From positions 1,191-65,190 of the forward strand of contig JBAXOA010000009.1 of assembly GCA_037133495.1 (NCBI GenBank): 64,000 nucleotides of DNA. Reading direction: 5' to 3'. Below the pieces are notes generated by a model. It was given only the letters and a program-made list of their open reading frames with translations. It ran no database searches and was not told the DNA's origin. Below, piece after piece: positions 2,500 through 62,478 of this stretch. The stretch comes from Mariniphaga sp. (GTDB lineage Bacteria > Bacteroidota > Bacteroidia > Bacteroidales > Prolixibacteraceae). The stretch's first letter is position 1, and each line of letters starts with the position of its first letter. Both the position numbers and the translations under genes were made by a program.

Positions 2500-3360
2500 G
2501 TGAGAATACTTGTTACAGGAGCGAATGGTCAACTGGGAAACGAAATTCGGGAATTAGCCTGGGAATATCCGGGCTACGATTTTATTTACACCGATGTTGA
2601 AGAACTGGACATTACGAACCGGCTCAAGGTTAAAGCCTTTTTTGAGGTAAATCAGCCTCAAATAATTATCAATTGTGCAGCCTATACGGCAGTTGATAAA
2701 GCAGAATCTGACGAAGCAAATGCCTTTTTGATTAATGCAAAAGCAGTTGAAAATCTGGCAAGATCAGCTGCCGAAATTGATGCGTTAATCATTCACATAT
2801 CAACTGATTATGTCTTTGATGGCAAATCGTTTCTTCCGATTAAGGAGAATGAACCAACAAATCCATCCTCAGCTTATGGCCGGACTAAGCTAGCCGGCGA
2901 GGAAGCCGTTCGGCAGCACGCCAGTAAAGGATTGATTATCAGGACTTCGTGGTTGTATTCCGCTTTTGGAAATAACTTTGTCAAGACGATGATGAAGTAC
3001 GGAAAAGAACGGGACGAACTTAAGGTAGTTTTTGATCAGGTCGGGACGCCGACGTATGCCAGAGATCTTGCTAAAGTAATCCTCGATATCATTCCGATGT
3101 CACTGGAGTATTCCGGAACCGGACTTTTCCATTATTCCAATGAAGGAGTTGCCAGCTGGTATGATTTTGCCCAAACTATTATTGCTTTTTCAGGTCTTAC
3201 ATGCGAAATAAAACCAATTCTGACAAAAGATTATCCTTTGCCGGCACCAAGACCATTTTTCAGTGTCATGGATAAATCAAAAATTAAAGAGACCTTCAAA
3301 ATTAAGATACCCTACTGGAGCGACAGTGTAAAAGCGTGTATTCAAAGACTTAAAGAATAA
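2500..3360 (+). CDS. rfbD: dTDP-4-dehydrorhamnose reductase
   Basis: GTG start. VTGANGQLG, the STDYVFDG motif, and YGRTK (Y-x3-K). 286 aa, typical RmlD length. Confidence 0.9.
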   Translation: MRILVTGANGQLGNEIRELAWEYPGYDFIYTDVEELDITNRLKVKAFFEVNQPQIIINCAAYTAVDKAESDEANAFLINAKAVENLARSAAEIDALIIHISTDYVFDGKSFLPIKENEPTNPSSAYGRTKLAGEEAVRQHASKGLIIRTSWLYSAFGNNFVKTMMKYGKERDELKVVFDQVGTPTYARDLAKVILDIIPMSLEYSGTGLFHYSNEGVASWYDFAQTIIAFSGLTCEIKPILTKDYPLPAPRPFFSVMDKSKIKETFKIKIPYWSDSVKACIQRLKE

Positions 3361-5110
3361 TGGGATTGCCGACATTAGCTTTCTTTTTGATTTGCTTTTC
3401 TATCACTACAATTAATTCGTCCTTTTTTATTGGTTTCGCAATATAATCATTACAACCGGCTTCAATTGCCTTTTCACGGTCGCCTGAAAGACCAAAAGCA
3501 GTCTGCGCAATTATAATAACATCTTTATTAAATTTTCGTATTTGCCGGGTAGCATCATATCCATTTAAACCCGGCATTTGAATATCCATAAGGATTAAAT
3601 CAATGTCCGGGTTTTGGAGACAGATTTCGACGGTTGCAATGCCTGTTCTTGATTCTAGTATTTCCTTGCTGTAAGGTTTCATTGCTATTGACATCAAAAT
3701 TTCCGATGTTTCATCGTCCTCGGCAATTAATATTTTTAGTTTCCCTAAGCTATTTTTTGTTTCAGTGTCTTTAACAGGCTTCAGATCTGTAATTTTATCT
3801 TTCGGGAAAGGGGCATACGGAATAGAAAAAAGGAATTTTGACCCTTTTCCTTCTTCACTTTCCAGCCAGATCCGCCCTCCTAATAATTCGGCATACGCTT
3901 TAGCAATTGATAAACCCAGGCCGGCACCCTGAAACGCATGTATATCGGTAATATCGGCCTGTATAAAGCGTTCAAATACTGCTACCTGCCTGTTGACCGG
4001 AATTCCAATGCCTGTGTCCTTTACGTAAAATTCAAGCGTTTCACCCTTTTTATCACACCCGATTTCTATCACACCATCAATGGTAAATTTTATGGCATTT
4101 TTAACGAGGTTTGTCAGTATAGCAATAATTTTCTCCCGGTCGGTAGTGACGATGGCTTGAGCTCCGGATAAGTTTGCTTTAAGTAGCAACTGCAATTTCT
4201 TTTTTTCGGTCTCAGGTTTGAAAAAAGTATAAACATACTCTATTTGGTCGTTTATATTCGTTGATGTCCGGTTCACTTCCATCAGGCCCGATTCTATTTT
4301 CGAAATATCGACAATGTTATTGATGATATTCAACATTCGGGTACCGCTTTTCTCTATTATTTCAATGAATTCATGTTGCTCTTCGCCGGTGAGGTGAGGT
4401 TCTTTCAGTAAAGCTGCAAAACCAAGAATGCCGTTCATAGGAGTTCTTATTTCGTGCGACATATTGGCGAGAAATGCCGATTTCAGTTGGTTGCTCTCTT
4501 CCGCTTTTTCTTTGGCGATAATTAGTTCTGCTGTTCTTTCAATTACTTGTTGTTCCAATGTTTCGTGAGAACGACGCAGTTCTTCTTCTTTTTGCTTTAA
4601 ATCAGATATGTCGGTGACCATAACACAAACATCGCCCAACAGTTCGGGAGGTAAGGAGCTAAATGAAAGATGTAAATGTACTGGCGGGGTATTTTCGTCC
4701 TTTATATAGGTTAACTCAACACTGGTTTTTCCTTTAAGACCAGCTTGCAGTAAATCGTTGCATTTTTGAATGTCGTTTTCCGGGAAAATCTGATTAAACC
4801 AGGAACCCACAATTTGTTCTGGCGCAACAGACAAAAGCTCGGCAAACCGGCGGTTGCAATACAGCACAACCCCATCGGCCGAAAGCACCACAGCTCCTTC
4901 ATTCATTTCTTCGATGATGACACGATATGGAGTTTCGGCAGAAGAAATTGAAAATATTTTTTCTCCACCTAAACCGGAAACAATTATTGCATCAACTTCG
5001 CCATTTCGAATTGCTTCAAGTGTTTCTTTAGCTTCGGCCAGGCTTGCCCGCAATTCTTCGTTTTCGAGTAAAAGCTGTTTTTCTGTTTTCGGAGCTAATT
5101 TCGCTGACAT
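3350..5110 (-). CDS. PAS-domain hybrid sensor histidine kinase with C-terminal receiver domain (last gene of the kai operon)
   Basis: N-terminal coiled coil, PAS region, H-box MSHEIRTPMNGI, G-box DTGIGI…GAGLGLSI, then REC with ILIAEDD…LILMDIQMPGLNG…KP. The start overlaps the kaiB stop by 16 nt. Confidence 0.9.
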   Translation of the reverse strand: MSAKLAPKTEKQLLLENEELRASLAEAKETLEAIRNGEVDAIIVSGLGGEKIFSISSAETPYRVIIEEMNEGAVVLSADGVVLYCNRRFAELLSVAPEQIVGSWFNQIFPENDIQKCNDLLQAGLKGKTSVELTYIKDENTPPVHLHLSFSSLPPELLGDVCVMVTDISDLKQKEEELRRSHETLEQQVIERTAELIIAKEKAEESNQLKSAFLANMSHEIRTPMNGILGFAALLKEPHLTGEEQHEFIEIIEKSGTRMLNIINNIVDISKIESGLMEVNRTSTNINDQIEYVYTFFKPETEKKKLQLLLKANLSGAQAIVTTDREKIIAILTNLVKNAIKFTIDGVIEIGCDKKGETLEFYVKDTGIGIPVNRQVAVFERFIQADITDIHAFQGAGLGLSIAKAYAELLGGRIWLESEEGKGSKFLFSIPYAPFPKDKITDLKPVKDTETKNSLGKLKILIAEDDETSEILMSIAMKPYSKEILESRTGIATVEICLQNPDIDLILMDIQMPGLNGYDATRQIRKFNKDVIIIAQTAFGLSGDREKAIEAGCNDYIAKPIKKDELIVVIEKQIKKKANVGNPIIL

Positions 5111-5487
5111 ATACTGCTTTTGAACAGATGATTTTTTTTATCTTTTACTTTTCGCAAATCGAGCCCAACAAGCACGCGGTCAACAACCGACAAATCGCCA
5201 ATAATTCGGTGCAAAGGTAAGGGTAGTCTTTTGATAAGGGTTGGTGCAGCAATAATCTGTTCTCCTTTGGCTAAGGTTGGGTTTAAGTAAAGATCTATCA
5301 CTTCCAGCTCGTAACGGCCTTTAAGGTATTCCTCGCAAATTTTTTTAATATTGGCAATTGCACTTACCGAATAAGACGTTGTACCGGCTACGTATAATCG
5401 TAACTGGTAAAAGGTATTTTCTGTTTTTTCGATTGCCTGTTCAAATGCCAGAGCTTCATCAGACAATACGTTTTTTTGCTTTTTCAT
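5095..5487 (-). CDS. kaiB: KaiB family protein (copy 2, with C-terminal extension)
   Basis: LRLYVAG…, APTLIKRLPLPLHRIIGDLS…VLVGLDL closely matches the cyanobacterial KaiB core. The 3' end overlaps the histidine kinase start. Confidence 0.85.
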   Translation of the reverse strand: MKKQKNVLSDEALAFEQAIEKTENTFYQLRLYVAGTTSYSVSAIANIKKICEEYLKGRYELEVIDLYLNPTLAKGEQIIAAPTLIKRLPLPLHRIIGDLSVVDRVLVGLDLRKVKDKKNHLFKSSICQRN

Positions 5488-5597
5488 CAGAAGATAATTT
5501 GTTTTTTAATTACCTGATAGCCTGTCCCGATTTATCGGGAGAACACTTGAGTCATCTTCATTCGTGTTTGCGAAGCGCAGATTCATAGGTGTTTCAT
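5482..5597. repeat. Diverged single copy of the 89-bp repeat unit seen at 61784-62056, filling the kaiB-kaiB spacer
   Basis: tttcatcagaagataatttgttttttaatt…gagtcatcttcattcgtgtttgcgaagcgcagattcat.ggtgtttcat aligns with the tandem units. 'gg' is replaced by 23 nt (net +21) that contain the palindrome tcccga-ttta-tcggga (5525-5540). Confidence 0.8.
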
Positions 5598-5615
5598 AAA
5601 ATTCGTTTTTAATGA

Positions 5616-5960
5616 TTATGAAGAAAGCCCTTTAAGGTCTAATCCAACCAGTACCCTGTCGATGTTTGACAAATCGCCGATTATTTTCCTCACCGGCACG
5701 GGTAGTTTCCTCACTAATGTAGGTACAGCAAGAATTTGGTCTTCGCGGCACAGTTGTGGGTTCTTTATAAGGTCAATTACTTCAATCCGGTATTTGCCTT
5801 TTAATTGCTCTTCGCAAATTGCCTTGAGATTTTTGAAAGCTGTGATTGATTTAGGCGTTTGTCCGGCAACATACAACCGCAATATCCATGCATCCTTCGC
5901 TTTTTTATCAGGCTTTTGTTTTGGAAGACTTGTTTCCGAAATATCTTTTTTTGGCGTCAT
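5616..5960 (-). CDS. kaiB: KaiB family protein (copy 1, with Lys-rich N-terminal extension)
   Basis: [13 protein letters not shown]…, [21 protein letters not shown]…VLVGLDL. The start codon lies 2 nt after the kaiC stop. Confidence 0.87.
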
Positions 5961-5962
5961 GT

Positions 5963-7717
5963 CTATTTCGTTTTAGCGTCGGTGGTCCCTTTCGGTTTAT
6001 TTGTGTTGCTTGTTTTTATGACAATATCTCCCTTCCGGTTTTTTGACATATCGACCCTGTCCTGCAAAAGGAGATTTTCGCGAAGCATATTTAGTTCTAT
6101 ATCTTTTAACGTTTCAATTTCTTCTGCTTCAAATTCGGCCTTCAGAAAATCAATCTGGGCATTAATTGCCTTGCGCTTCCGATCTAAGGCAAGTTTCTTA
6201 TTTTCAATCTCCTGGTTACGCAATAATTGTTCGGCTTTTTCTTTTGCTTCTTTTGTAATTCGCGATGAGCCGGTAAGTACACCCTCAGGTCCAACATACA
6301 CATCGAGCAGTTCCACGCCATGATCGGTCAGTTTAAATTCCCGGATTTGGTTCGAGTGTGCCATTCCGCGTGATTTAAGTATATACATTCCGCGGTTACG
6401 CTCTCCGCCTAATTCAATATCGCGCAAGAGTAACCATGTGTCGATCAATGAAGAAATATCGATTCCGGTATAATCGTTTGCTCCTGTGGTCAAATGTGTC
6501 ATGAATACAGAGATATGATTGATTTTTAAAAAGTCAACCATACGCATGATCATCGCCTTGGCTTCAAATTGGTTAGTGCCTATGATAAAACTGCTCAGCG
6601 GGTCTATAACCACAACCTTTGGTTTAAAATCATTCACAGCTTTGTGCATGGCAGTCAGGTAGGATTCTAAACCGTAAAAAGTAGGGCGTTTGGCATGAAA
6701 CACCAACAATCCCTTTTTTTCCCATTGTTCCAGATCGATGCCGATAGAACGCATGTTGCGCATAATCTGCCGGGGCGATTCTTCCAAGGCAAAATAGAGT
6801 ACTTTTTCTCCACGAGCGCAGGCTGCATCGGAAAAACATGCGGATAAACTGCTTTTCCCCACTCCGGCTGTACCGGAGACAAGAACAATGCTTCCGCGGT
6901 AATATCCTTTATTGCCCAGCATCGTATCAAGGCGTGGGATCCCGCTGGATATGCGTTCGGACGATACTGTGCGCTCCTGACCAATGGACGTGATGGGCAA
7001 AACAGAAAACCCGGTTTCTTCGATGATGAAAGGATACTCGTTTGTGCCATGGGTTGAACCGCGATATTTTACAATCCGCAACCTTCGGGTAGAGGATTGT
7101 TCCGTAACCCGGTGGTCAAGCACAATGACGCAATCACTAACGTATTCTTCCAATCCCTGACGCGTGAGTGTGCCCTCACCCCGCTCGCCGGTAACTATGG
7201 CTGTCACCCCCTTTTCTTTCAGCCAGTGAAATAACCGGCGGAGCTCAGAACGCAATATAAGCGGATTTGGTAAACCTGAAAAGAGCGTTTCGATCGTATC
7301 TAATACTACCCGCTTAGCGCCTATGCTATCAATGGCATGATTGAGCCGGATAAATAAACCTTCCAAATCATATTCGCCCGTTTCTTCAATTTCTTTGCGC
7401 TCGACATGCACATGGTCAAGAATAATTTTTTTGTCTGCAACTAATTTGTCTAAATCATAACCGAGAGAAACTACGTTTATGGCAAGGTCTTTTTCCGTTT
7501 CCTCGAATGCCAGAAAAACTCCGGGCTCGTTGTATAATATTGCTCCATGAACCAGAAACTCCATTGCAAAGAGAGTTTTTCCGCATCCTGCGCTGCCGCA
7601 AACCAGCGTAGGCCTCCCTTTTGGTATTCCGCCTCCGGTTATTTCGTCTAAGCCCTGAATCCCTGTAAGAGTCTTGGGAAGTGTTTGGATTGGTGATGGA
7701 ATTTTCTTTTTTTCCAT
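5963..7717 (-). CDS. kaiC: KaiC family circadian-clock-type double-RecA ATPase/autokinase with long C-terminal coiled-coil tail
   Basis: Two RecA-like halves: Walker A GSAGCGKT and [10 protein letters not shown] pairs in FEETEKD and LEESPRQ, and [12 protein letters not shown] matching the T426/S431/T432 region. I prefer ATG at 7717, preceded by AGGAGG (7727-7732, 9-nt spacer), over the TTG at 7762 that opens the ORF in the track. Confidence 0.92.
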
Positions 7718-7748
7718 GAGATATGCCCTCCTTTCTTGGTTTTTCTTG

Positions 7749-7756
7749 CAAATATA
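7749..7756 (-). promoter_or_regulatory. Candidate Bacteroidota -7 promoter box (TATATTTG) for the kai operon
   Basis: The minus strand reads TATATTTG, a perfect TAnnTTTG, about 32 nt upstream of the kaiC ATG. The nearest upstream TTTG is only 13 nt away, so spacing to a -33 element is non-ideal. Confidence 0.4.
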
Positions 7757-8082
7757 AATCAAATTAGTTCAAAATTAATCTTAGTACCAGACAAAAAAAT
7801 ACGTATTTATTTGATATACAGTAATATATGTTAAATACTCAATAATAACAACTATCTTTTATAGCGAATAAAGGACTGATATTCTGTGCTTTATCAGAAA
7901 TAAACCACACATGATTCAATGACCCATCAACACCAGGATTGAGCGTAAAAATTGCATTATCTTTATAATATTATCGCAAATATTCGGGGATTAAAAGACT
8001 TTGTTTATCAGGAAGATTAATCGTCTTGGACCAAAAGGTGCAAAGCACCGAAATATTTATTTAATATTTCTGTAATTATCAG

Positions 8083-8143
8083 AGATCATATTCAAATGAA
8101 GATGAAAGTCAAAAATGCGACAACAAATCTTTCCTGTTACTTA
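8083..8143 (+). repeat. Conserved intergenic motif, copy A (family of three)
   Basis: agatcatattcaaatgaagatgaaagtcaaaaatgcgacaacaaatctttcctgttactta. About 85-90% identical by eye to 13183-13243 and 42397-42457. The core starts 130 nt upstream of the 8220 start codon. Confidence 0.7.
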
Positions 8144-8219
8144 AATAAAAAAATTGCTAAATTTATACTTGCAATAAAGGCCCTGTCCGGAATCTTCAAA
8201 CGTTGAAACACCAAATGCG

Positions 8220-8846
8220 ATGAATCAATTCTTGAATATTATCTCCATACTATTGCTGGCAACTTTAACCGGATGCAGTAATCCGTTCGAAAAATCTGAA
8301 GAACCCGGGCCATCGGTAAATATGAAGACCACCCGATTAAAAGCACAAGAAGCATTTGACTTTTGCAAGAACCAGAACTTCAATACAGATTTTTGTATTT
8401 TGGTCGATATGAGCTTACACTCCGGTGTAAAAAGGTTTTTTGTTTGGGATTTTAAAAGAGATACTATTTCGTTCAGTTTTTTAGTCAGCCACGGGTGCTG
8501 CAACAATACCTGGAATGATGATTTGTCAAAAGAAAATCCTGGATTTAGCAATATTGAAGGAAGCCATTGTTCTTCCTCCGGAAAATATAAAATCGGAGAA
8601 AGAGATTACAGCGACTGGGGAGTTCATATAAAATATGTTTTATACGGTCTGGATGATTCTAACAGCAATGCACTTTCACGGGTAATTGTATTTCACTCGT
8701 GGGAAGTTGTTGCTGACAAAGAAATTTATCCGGACGGTACACCCGAAGGCTGGGGCTGTCCTGCCATATCAAATAATAGTTTCAAAATAGTCGATCCTTT
8801 ATTAAAGGGTTCAATACCACCTGTTCTGATGTGGATTTACATTTAG
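8220..8846 (+). CDS. Lipoprotein, probable L,D-transpeptidase catalytic-domain (YkuD_2-like) family
   Basis: Lipoprotein signal LLATLTGCS. The FLVSHG…GSHCSSSGKYKIG…VFHSW pattern resembles the Bacteroidota YkuD_2 family. Assigned from memory of the family. Confidence 0.6.
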   Translation: MNQFLNIISILLLATLTGCSNPFEKSEEPGPSVNMKTTRLKAQEAFDFCKNQNFNTDFCILVDMSLHSGVKRFFVWDFKRDTISFSFLVSHGCCNNTWNDDLSKENPGFSNIEGSHCSSSGKYKIGERDYSDWGVHIKYVLYGLDDSNSNALSRVIVFHSWEVVADKEIYPDGTPEGWGCPAISNNSFKIVDPLLKGSIPPVLMWIYI

Positions 8847-56190: not shown

Positions 56191-57564
56191 ATGGTTAAAA
56201 TGGGCAAAATTCTTGCAATTGATGACAATGAGGACATTCTTTTCTCACTTAGACTTCTTCTGAAGCCTCATGTTGAAAAAATAATAACCTCAAATATCGC
56301 CACCTCAATCCCTGAATTACTTAAAAATGAAGATTTTGACGTAATCCTGCTTGACATGAATTTCACTAAAGATGCTATCAGCGGACAGGAAGGGTTCTTT
56401 TGGCTCAAAAAAATTCTTGAAATTGATCCTTCGGCAGTGGTTCTGTTTATTACAGCTTACGGTGATATTGAAAAAAGCGTCCGTGCAATTAAAGAGGGTG
56501 CATCAGACTTTATTCTTAAGCCCTGGCAAAACGAGAAGCTATTGGCAACTTTAAATTCGGCAATGAATCTGCGAAAATCGAAAATGGAGATTGAGCAACT
56601 TAAAAGCCGGGCCAAAGCAATCAATAATATGATGAACCGGACGTTCAAAGATTTTATTGGAAATTCGGTTGAGATGCAAAAAGTTTACAACTCAATTTCG
56701 AAAGTAGCTACTACTGATGCGAGCGTTTTGATATTAGGAGAGAATGGCACAGGCAAAGAATTGGTTGCAAGGGCATTACACCAAAATTCAAGCCGATCAG
56801 ATGAAACTTTTATCAGTGTGGATTTAACGTCGATTAGTGAATCTCTTTTCGAAAGCGAGCTTTTTGGTCATACAAAAGGCTCATTTACGGATGCCAAAGC
56901 CGACAGACCCGGTCGTTTCGAAATTGCAGCAGGCGGAACGCTGTTTCTAGACGAGATCGGTAATCTGCCAATGCCACTCCAGGCCAAAATACTAACGGTA
57001 CTCGAACGACGGGAAGTGATCAGAGTTGGATCAAATAAACCCATTCCTATTGATATCCGTCTGATCTGCGCTACGAATATGCCACTTCATCAAATGATTG
57101 AAGAGGGAAAATTCAGGCAGGATTTGTTATATCGGATCAACACTGTTGAAATAGATCTGCCTCCTCTTCGCGAACGATATGGCGATGTTCCATTGCTTGC
57201 TGTTCACTTTTTCCAGATTTACGCAAAAAAATACAAGAAACAGCTGCGTGGATTTACCAAAGAAGCAATGAAGCGACTCGAAGAATCAGGATGGCCGGGT
57301 AATGTCAGAGAATTACAACATGTAATTGAACGGGCAGTAATTATGACAGAATCCGAATGGGTTAATCCCAATGACTTACAAATGAGAATATTAAACAAAA
57401 CGAGTGATGATTTGGAATTAGATAATTATGACCTTGAAAAAGTTGAAAAAACAATTATAATAAAAGTAATGAAAATGCATCAGGGAAATATTTCCAAAGC
57501 GGCAAGCGAACTTGGGCTAACCCGCACTTCACTTTATCGAAGAATGGAAAAATATGGGCTCTAA
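56191..57564 (+). CDS. Sigma-54-dependent response regulator (NtrC family: REC + AAA+ + Fis-type HTH)
   Basis: REC with DVILLDMNF; AAA+ with GENGTGKE, ESELFGH, GSFTDA (GAFTGA variant) and LFLDEIG; C-terminal HTH. An alternative start is MGKIL at 56200. Confidence 0.93.
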   Translation: MVKMGKILAIDDNEDILFSLRLLLKPHVEKIITSNIATSIPELLKNEDFDVILLDMNFTKDAISGQEGFFWLKKILEIDPSAVVLFITAYGDIEKSVRAIKEGASDFILKPWQNEKLLATLNSAMNLRKSKMEIEQLKSRAKAINNMMNRTFKDFIGNSVEMQKVYNSISKVATTDASVLILGENGTGKELVARALHQNSSRSDETFISVDLTSISESLFESELFGHTKGSFTDAKADRPGRFEIAAGGTLFLDEIGNLPMPLQAKILTVLERREVIRVGSNKPIPIDIRLICATNMPLHQMIEEGKFRQDLLYRINTVEIDLPPLRERYGDVPLLAVHFFQIYAKKYKKQLRGFTKEAMKRLEESGWPGNVRELQHVIERAVIMTESEWVNPNDLQMRILNKTSDDLELDNYDLEKVEKTIIIKVMKMHQGNISKAASELGLTRTSLYRRMEKYGL

Positions 57565-58915
57565 AAATTTTAGAATATCACTTTTTATCAGAGTACTGGC
57601 AATAGTTTTCAATGCCTTTGTGATCATGTGGCTGCTTTTTTCAACCAGCTATTATTTCACAATGTCTTTGGCTGTTGGAATTGCCATCTATCAGGTTGTA
57701 ATACTGATACAATTTGTTGAAACGACCAATACGCTGTTAACCAACTTTTTGGAATCTCTGAGATATTCTGATTTTTCACGAACATTCGAGATTAAGGGTC
57801 TTGGGCATTCATTCGACCGTTTGACAGAATCTTTTAATGTAGTGATCAACGACTTTAGAAAAGTCAGAGAAGAACGCGAACAAAACTTCTTTTACCTGGA
57901 AACTGTAGTTGAACATATCGGCATCGCACTGATTAGCTATCGCGAAAATGGTGCTGTTGAACTAATTAATAATTCTACAAAAAAACTCTTCAAAATAACA
58001 AATCTTAAAAATTTAAGCGAACTCGAAGGCTTTTCTTCTGAACTTGTCTCTAAATTAATGACCATCACCAACGGGGAAAGTATTATGGTGAAAATCCAGA
58101 AACAAGACACACTCCTTCAGCTGGCAATTTTTGTGACTGAATTTAAAGTCGCCGACCGGCTAATCCGAATGGCTTCTATTAAAGATATCCAGAATGAGCT
58201 GGAAGAGAATGAAATGGAAAGCTGGCAAAAACTTATCCGGGTACTAACTCATGAAATAATGAATTCAATTACGCCTATTGCGTCAATTACTCAAACACTA
58301 AATTACATGATCAAGGATGTAAGATCAACTTACACCAATGCATTTCAGGATGAAGGAGAGCATCAGGCTATCGAAGAAATTGCGCTTGCAATTGAGACCA
58401 TCCATAAAAGAAGTATCGGGCTACTCCATTTTGTGGAATCGTACCGGGATCTCACACGCATCCCTACGCCTAAATTTACCATCTTTTCAGTGCAAACACT
58501 ATTCGAAAATCTGATGGGATTAATGAAAAAAGAAATGCATAACCTTAACATTCAATGTACTACAATTATAATTCCAGAAAATCTTGAACTTTCAGCCGAT
58601 GAACAATTAATAGAGCAAGTATTAATCAACCTTCTGAAAAATGCAATTCAGGCACTCGGGAAAACAGAAAATCCACAAATCGAACTGAAAGCTTTTACAG
58701 ATATTAACGGGAAAATAAATATTCAGGTTTCTGATAATGGACAAGGAATTATTCCGGAAGTGCTGGATAAGGTATTTGTTCCATTTTTCACAACTAAACC
58801 AAAAGGTTCCGGAATAGGACTTAGCCTGTCACGCCAAATCCTTCGGCTTCATGGAGGAACTTTAACCGCACACTCCGAACCGGATAAACATACCGCATTC
58901 ATTTTAAAATTCTGA
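57554..58915 (+). CDS. Membrane sensor histidine kinase (cognate partner of the NtrC-type regulator)
   Basis: Two N-terminal TM helices, H-box LTHEIMNSITPI, N-box LINLLKNA, and G-boxes DNGQGI / GSGIGLSLS. Overlaps the upstream gene by 11 nt. Confidence 0.9.
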   Translation: MGSKNFRISLFIRVLAIVFNAFVIMWLLFSTSYYFTMSLAVGIAIYQVVILIQFVETTNTLLTNFLESLRYSDFSRTFEIKGLGHSFDRLTESFNVVINDFRKVREEREQNFFYLETVVEHIGIALISYRENGAVELINNSTKKLFKITNLKNLSELEGFSSELVSKLMTITNGESIMVKIQKQDTLLQLAIFVTEFKVADRLIRMASIKDIQNELEENEMESWQKLIRVLTHEIMNSITPIASITQTLNYMIKDVRSTYTNAFQDEGEHQAIEEIALAIETIHKRSIGLLHFVESYRDLTRIPTPKFTIFSVQTLFENLMGLMKKEMHNLNIQCTTIIIPENLELSADEQLIEQVLINLLKNAIQALGKTENPQIELKAFTDINGKINIQVSDNGQGIIPEVLDKVFVPFFTTKPKGSGIGLSLSRQILRLHGGTLTAHSEPDKHTAFILKF

Positions 58916-59592: not shown

Positions 59593-61740
59593 TTAGAACC
59601 GGATATTATATTTGAGTTTAAAACGCAAGGCGCTTTCATTAATTACATACCGTTCAAGTGGCTGAGAAATATTAGATGTCCACACAATAAATATCTCGTT
59701 TCCAGGCTTTACAATCCACTGAAATCTTGTTTGTACTCCAACAGTTTTTGAATTATTATCGTATTGAAAATAATTATTTAACGTAATATCCGGACTAAAA
59801 AGAATATTTGCATTCACCTGATAAATTTGTGCCGTAAACTGGCCCGCAGGAAGTGTCACCTCATTCTGTTTGTATTTTATCCCTATGAACAAAGGTACTG
59901 CTACCTTATAATTAATACCGGCGGTGTAGTCCCGGCGCGATCCATTGTAAAAATCACCCCAGACATAAGAACCGGTCACTGCAAAATTACGGCTTCCCGC
60001 AGTAGTGAGATTCAACGACTGCCGAAAAAATTGATATTTTCCAACAGGAATTACAAAATTTGAAAAGATATTAAAGTTTTTTTCAAGATTTTCATAACTT
60101 TGATTAATAGACCAGGAAAACTCTTCTCCGGATTTAAAGCGCAGAGAAAATGGTGAGTAACTGATCGTCCTTGTTTCGAGAACATTTGAGAAGTTGACGA
60201 TATGATCGAAGCCAATTCCTGTATTGACTTGCAGCAAGCCCCATTTATTCGGTCTGGGGCCAATTTTAATGTTTCCGTATGACTCTTTGATGTTGGTTCG
60301 GGGAACAAATCCCATACCTGCAACGAAGTGCTCGCCTATCTCGTGATGGCCCAACGTGAAGGAAAGGAAATCGTTCGGATAAGTAAACGTTCCGCCCCAG
60401 GATAAATCGTTGTTTGACAAACCTTTAGTGTTGGATTTCAATCCAAATAAGATTAATGAAAGATTTTTATTCCCCCTGAATTTCGAGGTGGCCAATTTCA
60501 TATCAATTCCTCCGACAAAGTTTTCTGCCTGAGAAACAGTATTGCCAAAGGTGCCAATCATACCAATGGAAGAGGCGCCGTTGATATTGCGGGAAATGCG
60601 GGCGACCGAAAAATTGGAATTTCCCAAGGAATGGTCATCGTTGACTTGCATCACGCCGATATTCCATCGGCCAATCGTTCCCGTCAGCTTCCCTGCATAA
60701 TTGATCTTTATCGGCAATCCATTGCTGTCCAATCCCATACGACGCGAAAGAAAGGGAATAATAGCCTTCCCATATGGGTTCCCATCATCACCCTGAATCC
60801 CAAATGAAAAATGACTTGAACCATCAAGAAAAAAATCTCTTCTCTCAGGAAACAAAACATCGAAGCGTGTAAGGTTAATCTGCCGATCATCAACAGCAGT
60901 TTCAGCGAAATCAGTATTAAAAGACAATACGGATTTCAGGCTTGGGGTAATCTGATAAAACAGATCAAGGCCACCATCGGCACGGTATTTATTTTTATTA
61001 TCACGTTTAGTATCCATTCCGCCGACAACATAAGGAGAAAGATCAAGTCCGATTCCCTGTGAGATATTTTGAATTCCTTCAATCAATCCGGCATCCGAGA
61101 CTTGAAATTTATAGTTGTTGATATTAGCGGCAGGCCAATAGGAAGATTCCAGCTTTCGCTTGATATGTCGTATAAATTTTATCCCCCACGTTGACAAGTT
61201 CTTATCGAAACCTATTGTTTTAAATGGGATGGCCATTTCGGCTTCCCATCCATCAGCCACAATTCTGGCCTTTGAATCCCATACTCCATTCCAGTTTTTA
61301 TTGAAAACTGCGCCATTTTCGCTGATTGTGGCATCCCCAAACGAACCTCTCGGACCAATCTGAAACCAGTAACCATTACGGTGATCGAGAAAAGTATCCA
61401 GAATCACCTGAACCCTGTCGTCATTTCCCAAATCAGCATCCCGTGCCATCTCCCTGGAAGTTATCTTGCCGGGATCATCGAAACACTTAACCCCGATATA
61501 AAGATGCGCCGCATCATAACAAGTATAAATGATGGTTTTTTCAGATACAGGCTGACCAGGATTCGGCTCACGCTGAAATAGTTCGTTTACGGTGGCTGCA
61601 TTTTTCCATGCCTCATCGTTCAAATGGCCATCAATTACGGGCGATTTGGATACGTAAACCGCTTTTAACGCCGGCTGGGCAAAACCTGCTATTGGAATTA
61701 AAATTAAGAACAATAAAAACCGCAGGAAAAAATTTATCAT
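59593..61740 (-). CDS. CBM9-like N-terminal domain + DUF5916 outer-membrane beta-barrel-like protein
   Basis: Signal peptide, PVIDGHLNDEAWKNA and HLYIGVKCFD (CBM9-like), then a long beta-rich region ending …LKYNIRF. Confidence 0.78.
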   Translation of the reverse strand: MINFFLRFLLFLILIPIAGFAQPALKAVYVSKSPVIDGHLNDEAWKNAATVNELFQREPNPGQPVSEKTIIYTCYDAAHLYIGVKCFDDPGKITSREMARDADLGNDDRVQVILDTFLDHRNGYWFQIGPRGSFGDATISENGAVFNKNWNGVWDSKARIVADGWEAEMAIPFKTIGFDKNLSTWGIKFIRHIKRKLESSYWPAANINNYKFQVSDAGLIEGIQNISQGIGLDLSPYVVGGMDTKRDNKNKYRADGGLDLFYQITPSLKSVLSFNTDFAETAVDDRQINLTRFDVLFPERRDFFLDGSSHFSFGIQGDDGNPYGKAIIPFLSRRMGLDSNGLPIKINYAGKLTGTIGRWNIGVMQVNDDHSLGNSNFSVARISRNINGASSIGMIGTFGNTVSQAENFVGGIDMKLATSKFRGNKNLSLILFGLKSNTKGLSNNDLSWGGTFTYPNDFLSFTLGHHEIGEHFVAGMGFVPRTNIKESYGNIKIGPRPNKWGLLQVNTGIGFDHIVNFSNVLETRTISYSPFSLRFKSGEEFSWSINQSYENLEKNFNIFSNFVIPVGKYQFFRQSLNLTTAGSRNFAVTGSYVWGDFYNGSRRDYTAGINYKVAVPLFIGIKYKQNEVTLPAGQFTAQIYQVNANILFSPDITLNNYFQYDNNSKTVGVQTRFQWIVKPGNEIFIVWTSNISQPLERYVINESALRFKLKYNIRF

Positions 61741-61783: not shown

Positions 61784-62056
61784 TTTCATCAGAAGATAAT
61801 TTGTTTTTTAATTGCCTGATGGAACACCTGAGTCATCTTCATTCGTGTTTGCGAAGCGCAGATTCATGGGTGTTTCATCAGAAGATAATTTGTTTTTTAA
61901 TTGCCTGATGGAACACCTGAGTCATCTTCATTCGTGTTTGCGAAGCGCAGATTCATGGGTGTTTCATCAGAAGATAATTTGTTTTTTAATTGCCTGATGG
62001 AACACCTGTGTTATCTTCATTCATGTTTGCGAAGCGCAGATTCATGGGTGTTTCAT
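61784..62056. repeat. Tandem repeat: three contiguous 89-bp units plus a 6-nt partial unit
   Basis: The unit start tttcat recurs at 61784, 61873, 61962 and 62051, an exact 89-bp period. Units 1 and 2 are identical by eye. Unit 3 has 3 substitutions. Each unit can form a 13-bp (12 paired) stem: CUGAUGAAACACC / GGUGUUCCAUCAG on the minus strand. Confidence 0.92.
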
Positions 62057-62070
62057 AAGCCTTAAACAGA

Positions 62071-62478
62071 TTAGGATTCAATAACTTTCCGATTGGCTTT
62101 TGTGGTTGCCTGGACCCGTTTTGATTCAAGTCGCCTTTCGACCGATGCTTTGGTAGGTTTAGTTCCAAGTCGTTTTTTTCGGGGTGTAAGCACCTTTATC
62201 AGAAGTATATAAAACTTATTGATTACTTTATCTTTGTTTTTAAGTTGTGAACGCTCCGACTGTGAGACAAGGATTAATTCACCTTCCTTATTGATTTTAT
62301 TAATCAGTTTTTGGAATACGAGGACCTTTTCATCATCATTCAGCAAAACAGAAGCCCCGACATTAAATCGTAGTTCTACTTTAGTACTTACTTTATTGAC
62401 ATTTTGTCCTCCCGGTCCCCCACTGCGGGAGGCCTGAAAAACAAATTCATCCTTAAAGTCTCTGTCGCGAATGTCCAT
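62071..62478 (-). CDS. arfB: Alternative ribosome-rescue factor ArfB (peptidyl-tRNA hydrolase, GGQ domain + basic tail)
   Basis: SGGPGGQNVNKVSTKVELRF GGQ motif, about 135 aa, and a Lys/Arg-rich C-terminal tail. Confidence 0.9.
   Translation of the reverse strand: MDIRDRDFKDEFVFQASRSGGPGGQNVNKVSTKVELRFNVGASVLLNDDEKVLVFQKLINKINKEGELILVSQSERSQLKNKDKVINKFYILLIKVLTPRKKRLGTKPTKASVERRLESKRVQATTKANRKVIES

Follow-up and report, generated by a model that had tools for sequence, protein, structure and literature searches.

A KaiA-less kaiC-kaiB-kaiB'-PAS kinase operon of the KaiC2 type in Mariniphaga sp. (Bacteroidota), with a second KaiB paralogue and a modular PAS partner

A stretch of 64,000 nucleotides from Mariniphaga sp. 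(Bacteroidota; GenBank assembly GCA_037133495.1, contig JBAXOA010000009.1, positions 1,191 to 65,190; hereafter the window) contains four co-directional minus-strand open reading frames (ORFs) encoding KaiC, a first KaiB, a second KaiB (here KaiB') and a hybrid histidine kinase, and raises the question of what kind of Kai system these genes form and which part of the fourth protein is tied to it. A preliminary description, made from the letters of the window alone, had called them an operon for KaiC, two KaiBs and a PAS hybrid histidine kinase, lacking KaiA, in a Bacteroidota-like genome. As a gene cluster of a Bacteroidota genome, this is borne out by our analysis: the ORF listing together with Pfam and NCBIfam matches places the four genes where they had been described, and the closest KaiCs (95% identity) come from lake Bacteroidales or Bacteroidota metagenome-assembled genomes (MAGs). 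We consider it probable, with some reserve, that the operon encodes a KaiA-independent phospho-timer or energy-state switch of the KaiC2 type, orthologous to the KaiBC hourglass of Rhodobacter (Cereibacter) sphaeroides and wired to a two-component output. Coordinates of the features are collected in Table 1.

For comparison, one genome per GTDB species was scanned for relatives, giving 80 loci (labelled L001 and so on where they are named here) whose KaiC is 55-95% identical to that of the window; their gene order was read by phmmer searches of the four window proteins against the six-frame ORFs of these loci. Of the related loci, 76 have kept at least one kaiB, and 68 of these, mostly in Bacteroidota, share with the window the order kaiC-kaiB-kaiB'-fourth gene. 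The other eight have a single kaiB, and two of them are cut by a contig end. Ratios of nonsynonymous to synonymous substitution rates (dN/dS) against close relatives lie between 0.05 and 0.32 for the four genes, showing purifying selection on all of them, with values of 0.05-0.08 for kaiC, 0.08-0.11 for kaiB, 0.10-0.18 for kaiB' and 0.17-0.32 for the kinase.

The KaiC protein matches PF06745 in two stretches (365 bits) and passes the curated NCBIfam model NF006799 (724 bits, cut-off 408). The residues expected of an active autokinase and ATPase, to which the preliminary description had drawn attention, could all be located, and the corresponding activities are predicted from them. In CI these are the Walker A motif GSAGCGKT (residues 41-48) and FEETEKD at 71, containing the EE pair 72-73, and in CII the Walker A motif GTAGVGKS (residues 282-289) and LEESPRQ at 311, containing the EE pair 312-313, together with the phosphosite-region motif at residue 416. 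The T-x4-S-S reading of this last motif, proposed earlier by eye, is reproduced by BLASTP, which aligns T417, S422 and S423 with T426, S431 and T432 of Synechococcus elongatus KaiC (a reference checked against PDB 1U9I: 1148 bits, 519 of 519 residues). S422 and S423 also match S413 and S414 of the R. sphaeroides protein KaiC_RS (8DBA), with T417 five residues upstream. The serine pair (SS) is kept in 74 of 81 related KaiCs, in which a median of about 150 residues lies between the site and the C-terminus.

Similarity to KaiC_RS extends over residues 14-561 (654 bits against 8DBA) and includes the C-terminal coiled-coil region, whereas cyanobacterial KaiC structures (S. elongatus, T. elongatus) score about 340 bits. 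Identity to KaiC_RS is 52% overall (65.5% in CI, 50% in CII and 25% in the tail), compared with 37% to S. elongatus KaiC. The protein does not reach the cut-off of the cyanobacterial equivalog TIGR02655 (352.8 bits, cut-off 546.25), and its score against the RadA model TIGR00416 is only 67 bits (cut-off 403). With such scores KaiC does not group with RadA or with single-domain, non-clock KaiC-like ATPases, a check that the preliminary description had proposed. An SS pair combined with a long tail is characteristic of the KaiC2 subgroup (Pitsawong et al. 2023, PMC10076222; Schmelling et al. 2017). Judged by bit scores, curated cut-offs of hidden Markov models, the SS sites and the tail, KaiC belongs to the KaiC2 or R. 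sphaeroides type, and resembles KaiC_RS more than it does KaiC1 or RadA. The tail is about 100 residues long, as in KaiC_RS, lacks Pro and Gly between residues 490 and 560, and carries an AQI..L.AE..AEE motif common to KaiC_RS and a Pararhizobium KaiC. We infer that it would correspond to the coiled-coil stalk through which two KaiC_RS hexamers are joined.

Both KaiBs are recognized by Pfam PF07689 (kaiB 92 bits and kaiB' 81 bits, cut-off 27), and the best PDB match of both is KaiB_RS in the KaiBC_RS complex 8FWJ (chain 8FWJ_M for kaiB). The two are 52% identical, and the NCBIfam equivalog NF006798 (cut-off 110) is passed by the first (118 bits) and failed by the second (91 bits). In a neighbor-joining tree of KaiB cores, all 69 position-1 KaiBs and KaiB_RS form one clade, with no position-2 KaiB inside it. 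Mean identity is 69% within position 1, 49% within position 2 and 44% between the groups, and the mean identity to KaiB_RS is 61% for position 1 and 47% for position 2. Because the position-1 clade excludes the position-2 KaiBs and identity between the groups is only 44%, the duplication is judged to be old, and by these comparisons KaiB and KaiB' are two orthologous groups descending from it. A recent, lineage-specific duplication of kaiB was considered and rejected on the same tree. By their sequences, both window KaiBs retain a G and a D at the positions of G88 and D90, the residues involved in the fold switch of the S. elongatus protein.

A KaiB-type gene stands alone in L023, L024 and R. 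sphaeroides, and a KaiB'-type gene stands alone in L018, L077 and L028. A role of KaiB' as dedicated adaptor of the PAS module was rejected, since the module persists where only KaiB (L023, L024, R. sphaeroides) or only KaiB' (L018, L077) is present. As either paralogue suffices in some lineages, a second KaiC-binding regulator with different kinetics is favored over an adaptor for KaiB'. A literature search for tandem or duplicated kaiB genes beside one kaiC found nothing specific. The absence of kaiA, stated in the preliminary description for the ORFs of the window, was confirmed by tblastn and phmmer searches with a PDB-validated KaiA query, which found no KaiA in the 64-kb window (best tblastn E = 1.3 over 16 aa) and none among the ORFs of the 80 related loci.

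The fourth gene (3350-5110) encodes a hybrid histidine kinase with the Pfam architecture PAS-HisKA-HATPase_c-Response_reg, its HATPase_c domain containing an N-box at 334 and G-boxes at 365 and 395. It has no KaiB-like N-terminal domain, in agreement with the earlier statement that the output partner is such a hybrid kinase and not SasA. Across the related loci, only the N-terminal ∼190 residues of this protein are always matched, and 71 of the 80 loci have the N-terminal module in their fourth gene. In the AlphaFold2 model (mean pLDDT, the predicted local distance difference test score, of 82), it consists of a helix, a hairpin, a PAS fold and a long exit helix. The C-terminal part varies, and may be missing (in nine loci, with products of about 237 aa), a HisKA/HATPase core, an extra PAS domain with a kinase core, or a kinase core with a receiver (REC). 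A Pfam census of the 67 complete fourth-gene products, a set selected by the presence of the N-terminal module, found PAS in 63, HisKA in 54, HATPase_c in 53, Response_reg in 9 and HD in 1.

Stand-alone PAS proteins of about 237 aa without a kinase are encoded in many Bacteroidales and Prolixibacteraceae genomes (L014, L015, L017, L019, L026, L036, L048, L068, L071, L081 and L083). In this form, a Lys/Glu-rich C-terminal helix comes after the helix-hairpin-PAS module. L084 has separate, overlapping genes for the PAS protein and for a HisKA/HATPase protein of 300 aa. The stand-alone forms and the split in L084 imply that the Kai-linked module is separable from any output domain. When residues 1-200 were searched against 5.8 billion proteins, 607 matches were obtained, the best being mostly stand-alone PAS proteins of this length, and all three genome-context look-ups placed such proteins directly after kaiC-kaiB-kaiB. 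Residues 9-91 are nearly invariant in an alignment of the stand-alone homologues. In 65 loci, the gene that follows kaiB contains the signature (A/S)(I/V/L)xxGx(V/I/A)D(A/G) (AIRNGEVDA in the window kinase), which is otherwise all but missing from about 1.2 Mb of flanking DNA. The module also matches the HWE kinase of R. sphaeroides KD131 (39% over 79 aa, E = 3e-11). Taken together, these comparisons identify the N-terminal helix-hairpin-PAS module, and not the REC domain, as the constant partner of KaiC2 and KaiB. A PDB sequence search with the module gave only a weak match to the ThkA PAS domain (E = 0.005), and a Foldseek search of its model against the PDB gave only generic PAS folds (DosP, FixL, PYP, LOV) at 13-22% identity, from which no ligand can be inferred.

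The proposed mechanism builds on direct observations, namely family memberships, motif conservation, gene order, purifying selection and the identity of the conserved module, and takes its Kai steps from the R. sphaeroides system. The KaiC2 clade with a ∼50-aa tail was reported to form a dodecamer and to autophosphorylate independently of KaiA; KaiB binds CI in its ADP-bound state, and the ATP:ADP ratio resets the system (Pitsawong et al. 2023, PMC10076222). By homology, the KaiC hexamers of the window would pair via their long C-terminal helices, keeping the A-loop exposed, and KaiC would autophosphorylate S422 and S423 without KaiA while ATP is high. Fold-switched KaiB would then bind the ADP-bound CI ring, open a water tunnel and accelerate ATP hydrolysis, and a falling ATP:ADP ratio would return KaiC to the unphosphorylated state. 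With dephosphorylation driven by ATP:ADP, such an hourglass would need an external metabolic cue for its reset. KaiB' might, speculatively, be a further KaiC-binding regulator that tunes the KaiB step.

The helix-hairpin-PAS module would read the state of KaiC or KaiBC, a step proposed from synteny and from one Pseudomonas experiment, and would control the HisKA/HATPase core, which would act through its own receiver on an Hpt protein and a response regulator. A phosphorelay of this kind is expected of a kinase core that has its own receiver. In P. putida, the N-terminal PAS domain of a kaiC-adjacent kinase suffices to pull down KaiC (bioRxiv 10.1101/2022.01.26.477890), and this binding and the strict synteny support coupling through the PAS module.

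Several points weigh against this mechanism. The dodecamer is unproven, because the tail is only 25% identical to that of KaiC_RS and its best heptad register is hydrophobic at just 12 of 25 a/d positions. The mechanism leaves the role of KaiB' unexplained, the regulator role named above being speculative. Neither an Hpt protein nor a cognate response regulator is found near the kinase in the window. A repeat element interrupts the operon between the two kaiB genes, so that equal co-expression is not assured. The closest relatives are lake MAGs labeled Bacteroidales or Bacteroidota, and if the host is non-phototrophic, a daily swing of ATP:ADP is not an obvious cue. The literature search found no experimental study of a Bacteroidota Kai system, as the preliminary description had supposed, and returned only a taxonomic note on Dyadobacter. 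Finally, about a dozen lineages carry the PAS module without a kinase domain, so that it may serve as an input or as part of the core and not as a reader of the output.

The only other two-component genes of the window found by similarity to the Kai-linked kinase are a sigma-54-dependent response regulator (REC-AAA+-HTH_8, 56191-57564) followed by a histidine kinase (57554-58915), and nothing ties this pair to the kai operon.

The kinase-free PAS proteins lead to a reading in which the components are the same but the direction is reversed. The helix-hairpin-PAS protein would be an input or core regulator, responding to redox state, O2 or a metabolite by modulating KaiC phosphorylation and standing in for the KaiA/CikA input, with the kinase and REC as optional additions. 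We regard this as unlikely, though it is the likeliest of the alternatives: the module is kept directly after kaiC-kaiB-kaiB even in the kinase-free ∼237-aa proteins, its PAS fold resembles those of the heme and flavin sensors DosP, FixL and LOV, and an oxygen- or redox-sensing role has been suggested for the Kai-linked PAS kinase in the literature on purple bacteria. However, no cofactor-binding signature was identified in the PAS domain, whose fold matches are generic at 13-22% identity; conservation is highest in the N-terminal helix and hairpin, not in the PAS pocket; and the kinase core in 54 of the 67 homologues fits an output role.

It is also conceivable, at a distinctly lower probability, that the conserved unit is a four-component machine made of KaiC2, KaiB, KaiB' and the helix-hairpin-PAS protein, in which the latter two belong to the core of the timer. 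On the CI ring, KaiB' could for instance be a competitor of KaiB or hand over to it, and the PAS protein could attach to the KaiC stalk through its N-terminal helix. If true, this would allow delay, bistability or free-running cycles beyond the R. sphaeroides hourglass, in Bacteroidota not known as phototrophs.

We think it very improbable that the REC domain docks on fold-switched KaiB in the manner of the CikA pseudo-receiver and so couples the kinase to the timer, as the preliminary description had suggested by analogy. In cyanobacteria, the CikA pseudo-receiver binds fold-switched KaiB, and the REC of the window kinase is present and intact; it is a genuine receiver, as had been claimed, with D465/D466, D509, T537 and K559 all in place. 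Yet this completeness of the phospho-acceptor residues makes it look like an ordinary phosphorelay receiver, it occurs in only 9 of the 67 complete fourth-gene products and is missing from some close relatives (L001, L004, L006), and the kinases of the studied R. sphaeroides and R. palustris operons lack it, whereas the N-terminal module is present in 71 of 80 loci. A self-sustained circadian oscillator without KaiA, with KaiB' supplying the missing delayed feedback, is hardly credible: it would draw on one conserved component more than the R. sphaeroides hourglass has and on the fold-switch G and D kept in both KaiBs, but free-running has been shown for no KaiC2-type system, KaiBC_RS depends on an ATP:ADP cue, some lineages have only one KaiB type (L018, L077, L023, L024), and nothing in the sequence predicts oscillation.

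The timer or energy-state switch favored here would be shared by a wide range of bacteria. Other Bacteroidota among the 80 related loci are Prolixibacteraceae, Paludibacter, Mucilaginibacter, Flavobacterium, Dyadobacter, Segetibacter and Chitinophagaceae, and beyond this phylum the loci come from Ramlibacter and other Burkholderiales, a deltaproteobacterium, Planctomycetota, Ignavibacteriaceae, Syntrophomonadaceae, Armatimonadota and two cyanobacteria. Plasmids of Sinorhizobium, Rhizobium and Falsirhodobacter carry kaiC-kaiB-PAS/histidine kinase (HK) genes. DNA similarity of 80-90% to the closest relatives (L001-L007) is confined to 3374-7783, with unrelated flanks on both sides. One MAG, Loclat_bin-01022, contains two complete cassettes (L002, KaiC 95% identical, and L009, 73%), and KaiC2 cassettes are also found on alphaproteobacterial plasmids, two of them conjugative. 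The end of similarity at the cassette borders, the two cassettes in one MAG, the plasmid copies and the patchy phylogenetic distribution suggest that the cassette moves by horizontal transfer.

Within the window, the four genes had been described as tightly packed. This holds for kaiC and the first kaiB, whose stop (5963) and start (5960) are 2 nt apart, and for the overlap of 16 nt between the kaiB' and kinase ORFs (5095-5110), but not for the two kaiB genes, which are separated by 128 nt (5488-5615). The first ORF spans 5963-7762 on the minus strand and has an internal ATG at 7717. The latter is the most likely kaiC start and the upstream TTG at 7762 less likely, because AGGAGG lies 9 nt upstream of the ATG and homologues begin at the same position. 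The octamer TATATTTG (7749-7756), 33-40 nt upstream of the kaiC ATG, fits TAnnTTTG, the Bacteroidetes -7 promoter consensus, and is a putative promoter element; no well-spaced -33 TTTG was seen upstream of it. A scan of 3000-8400 for sigma-70 promoters and intrinsic terminators gave counts no higher than in shuffled sequences, with no promoter- or terminator-like site in the intergenic spaces of the four genes, and an Rfam scan of the whole window gave no match. The ∼500-nt stretch between kaiC and a divergent YkuD-like gene at 8220 is otherwise without annotation. At the other end, the 3' ends of the kinase gene and of a convergent rmlD-like gene (2500-3360, plus strand) overlap by 11 nt (3350-3360), so that an intervening terminator would have no space.

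The gap between kaiB and kaiB' is largely made up of an insertion (about 105 of the 128 nt), consisting of a repeat element and a hairpin, with an RNA fold z-score of -2.97. Copies of the repeat that are 96% identical form a tandem array at 61784-62056 (3.1 copies, 98% matches, minus-strand unit ATGAAACACCCATGAATCTGCGCTTCGCAAACACGAATGAAGATGACTCAGGTGTTCCATCAGGCAATTAAAAAACAAATTATCTTCTG) between ORFs at ∼62100-62470 and 59593-61740. The copy on the kaiB' side is interrupted by the 22-nt hairpin, lies directly upstream of the kaiB' start codon and has ATGAAA on both flanks. The 89-nt repeat has no match in Rfam and was not found in the related loci, and an exact search of metagenome contigs for its core gave no matches. 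It may be a small mobile element resembling a repetitive extragenic palindrome (REP) or a miniature inverted-repeat transposable element (MITE).

Table 1. Positions of the kai genes, their predicted functional parts and nearby signals in the window
Feature	Position	Strand	Description or basis
Putative kaiC expression signals	7727..7756	-	TATATTTG at 7749-7756 and AGGAGG at 7727-7732; read from sequence
kaiC, KaiC2 / R. sphaeroides type, 584 aa	5963..7717	-	Pfam, NCBIfam, PDB 8DBA match
Codons S422 and S423, predicted autophosphorylation sites	6449..6454	-	Alignments to 8DBA and S. elongatus KaiC
KaiC C-terminal extension, residues ~485-565, predicted long helix	6023..6265	-	Gapless alignment to 8DBA 476-554
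kaiB (position 1), 114 aa, canonical KaiB_RS-like paralogue	5616..5960	-	Pfam, NF006798, KaiB clustering
Insertion: ~89-nt repeat element and 22-nt hairpin	5488..5600	-	Absent at the site in L001, L002, L003, L007
kaiB' (position 2), 130 aa, diverged, faster-evolving KaiB paralogue	5095..5487	-	Pfam KaiB; outside the position-1 clade
N-terminal Kai-linked module of the kinase, residues 1-205	4496..5110	-	Helix 10-35 with ETLEAIRNGEVDAIIV, beta-hairpin 41-54, PAS fold 61-167, linker helix
HisKA (H219) and HATPase_c core	3812..4483	-	Pfam 77.5 and 86.2 bits; H-box SHEIRTP at 218
REC domain, lineage-specific addition	3401..3733	-	Pfam Response_reg 74.4 bits; D465/D466, D509, T537, K559

The novelty that the preliminary description implied does not stand. 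A group of Bacteroidetes encoding only KaiB2 and KaiC2 was described by Schmelling et al. (2017), kaiC-kaiB-PAS/HK operons by De Luca et al. (2011) and, for R. palustris and R. sphaeroides, by Ma et al. (2016), and the four-gene layout is annotated in RefSeq for Pararhizobium. With KaiA-less KaiC2/KaiB2 in Bacteroidetes, such operons and the KaiA-independent hourglass already published, the locus itself adds little; by sequence comparison it is a genuine, ordinary copy of a widespread KaiC/KaiB hourglass-type signaling operon. Its under-described features are the KaiB' paralogue and the modular PAS partner, which are traits of the whole family and not of the window. This second, old and faster-evolving KaiB is conserved in most Bacteroidota cassettes and in several other phyla, and we found no paper that discusses it. 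The PAS module carries different outputs or none, and is common to the experimentally tractable R. sphaeroides system. KaiB' and the module thus offer an entry to the readout of KaiA-less Kai systems and to the use of timers in bacteria not known as phototrophs.

Among the known systems, that of R. sphaeroides KD131 (8DBA, 8FWI, 8FWJ) shares with the window the SS sites, the long tail, the KaiB subfamily, the lack of KaiA and the order kaiC-kaiB-PAS kinase, and its kinase has the same N-terminal ELR..L.EAEETL.AIR.GEVDA helix and first PAS domain. It differs in having a single kaiB and an HWE kinase, whereas the window has KaiB' and a HisKA/HATPase_c kinase with REC, in a Bacteroidota host and not a purple phototroph. 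R. palustris (Ma et al. 2016), compared here by its description, likewise has a kaiC-kaiB-PAS/HK operon without kaiA, for which a single promoter was predicted, but with a single kaiB and with a phenotype tied to phototrophy (nitrogen fixation and growth dependent on light-dark cycles, LD). The Pararhizobium qamdonense plasmid p3, known from RefSeq annotation only, has the same four-gene order and a helix-PAS-HisKA-HATPase_c-REC kinase, its KaiC being 57% identical to that of the window and its kinase 29% identical over 555 columns. It is, however, an alphaproteobacterial conjugative plasmid, and lacks the repeat insertion between the kaiB genes.

The S. elongatus KaiABC system resembles the window in its double-domain KaiC, the catalytic residues, the T/S/S(T) triad, the KaiB fold family and a histidine kinase output, but has KaiA, ST sites and SasA/CikA, whereas the window has SS sites and a long tail. 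The window kinase has neither the KaiB-like N-terminal domain of SasA nor the pseudo-receiver of CikA, its N-terminus being a helix and PAS domain and its REC being catalytically complete. In the Pseudomonas KaiC-HK-response regulator stress modules (Terrettaz et al., bioRxiv 2022), likened to the window by their description, kaiC also adjoins a PAS-fronted histidine kinase, but these modules have no KaiB and their KaiCs belong to other groups.

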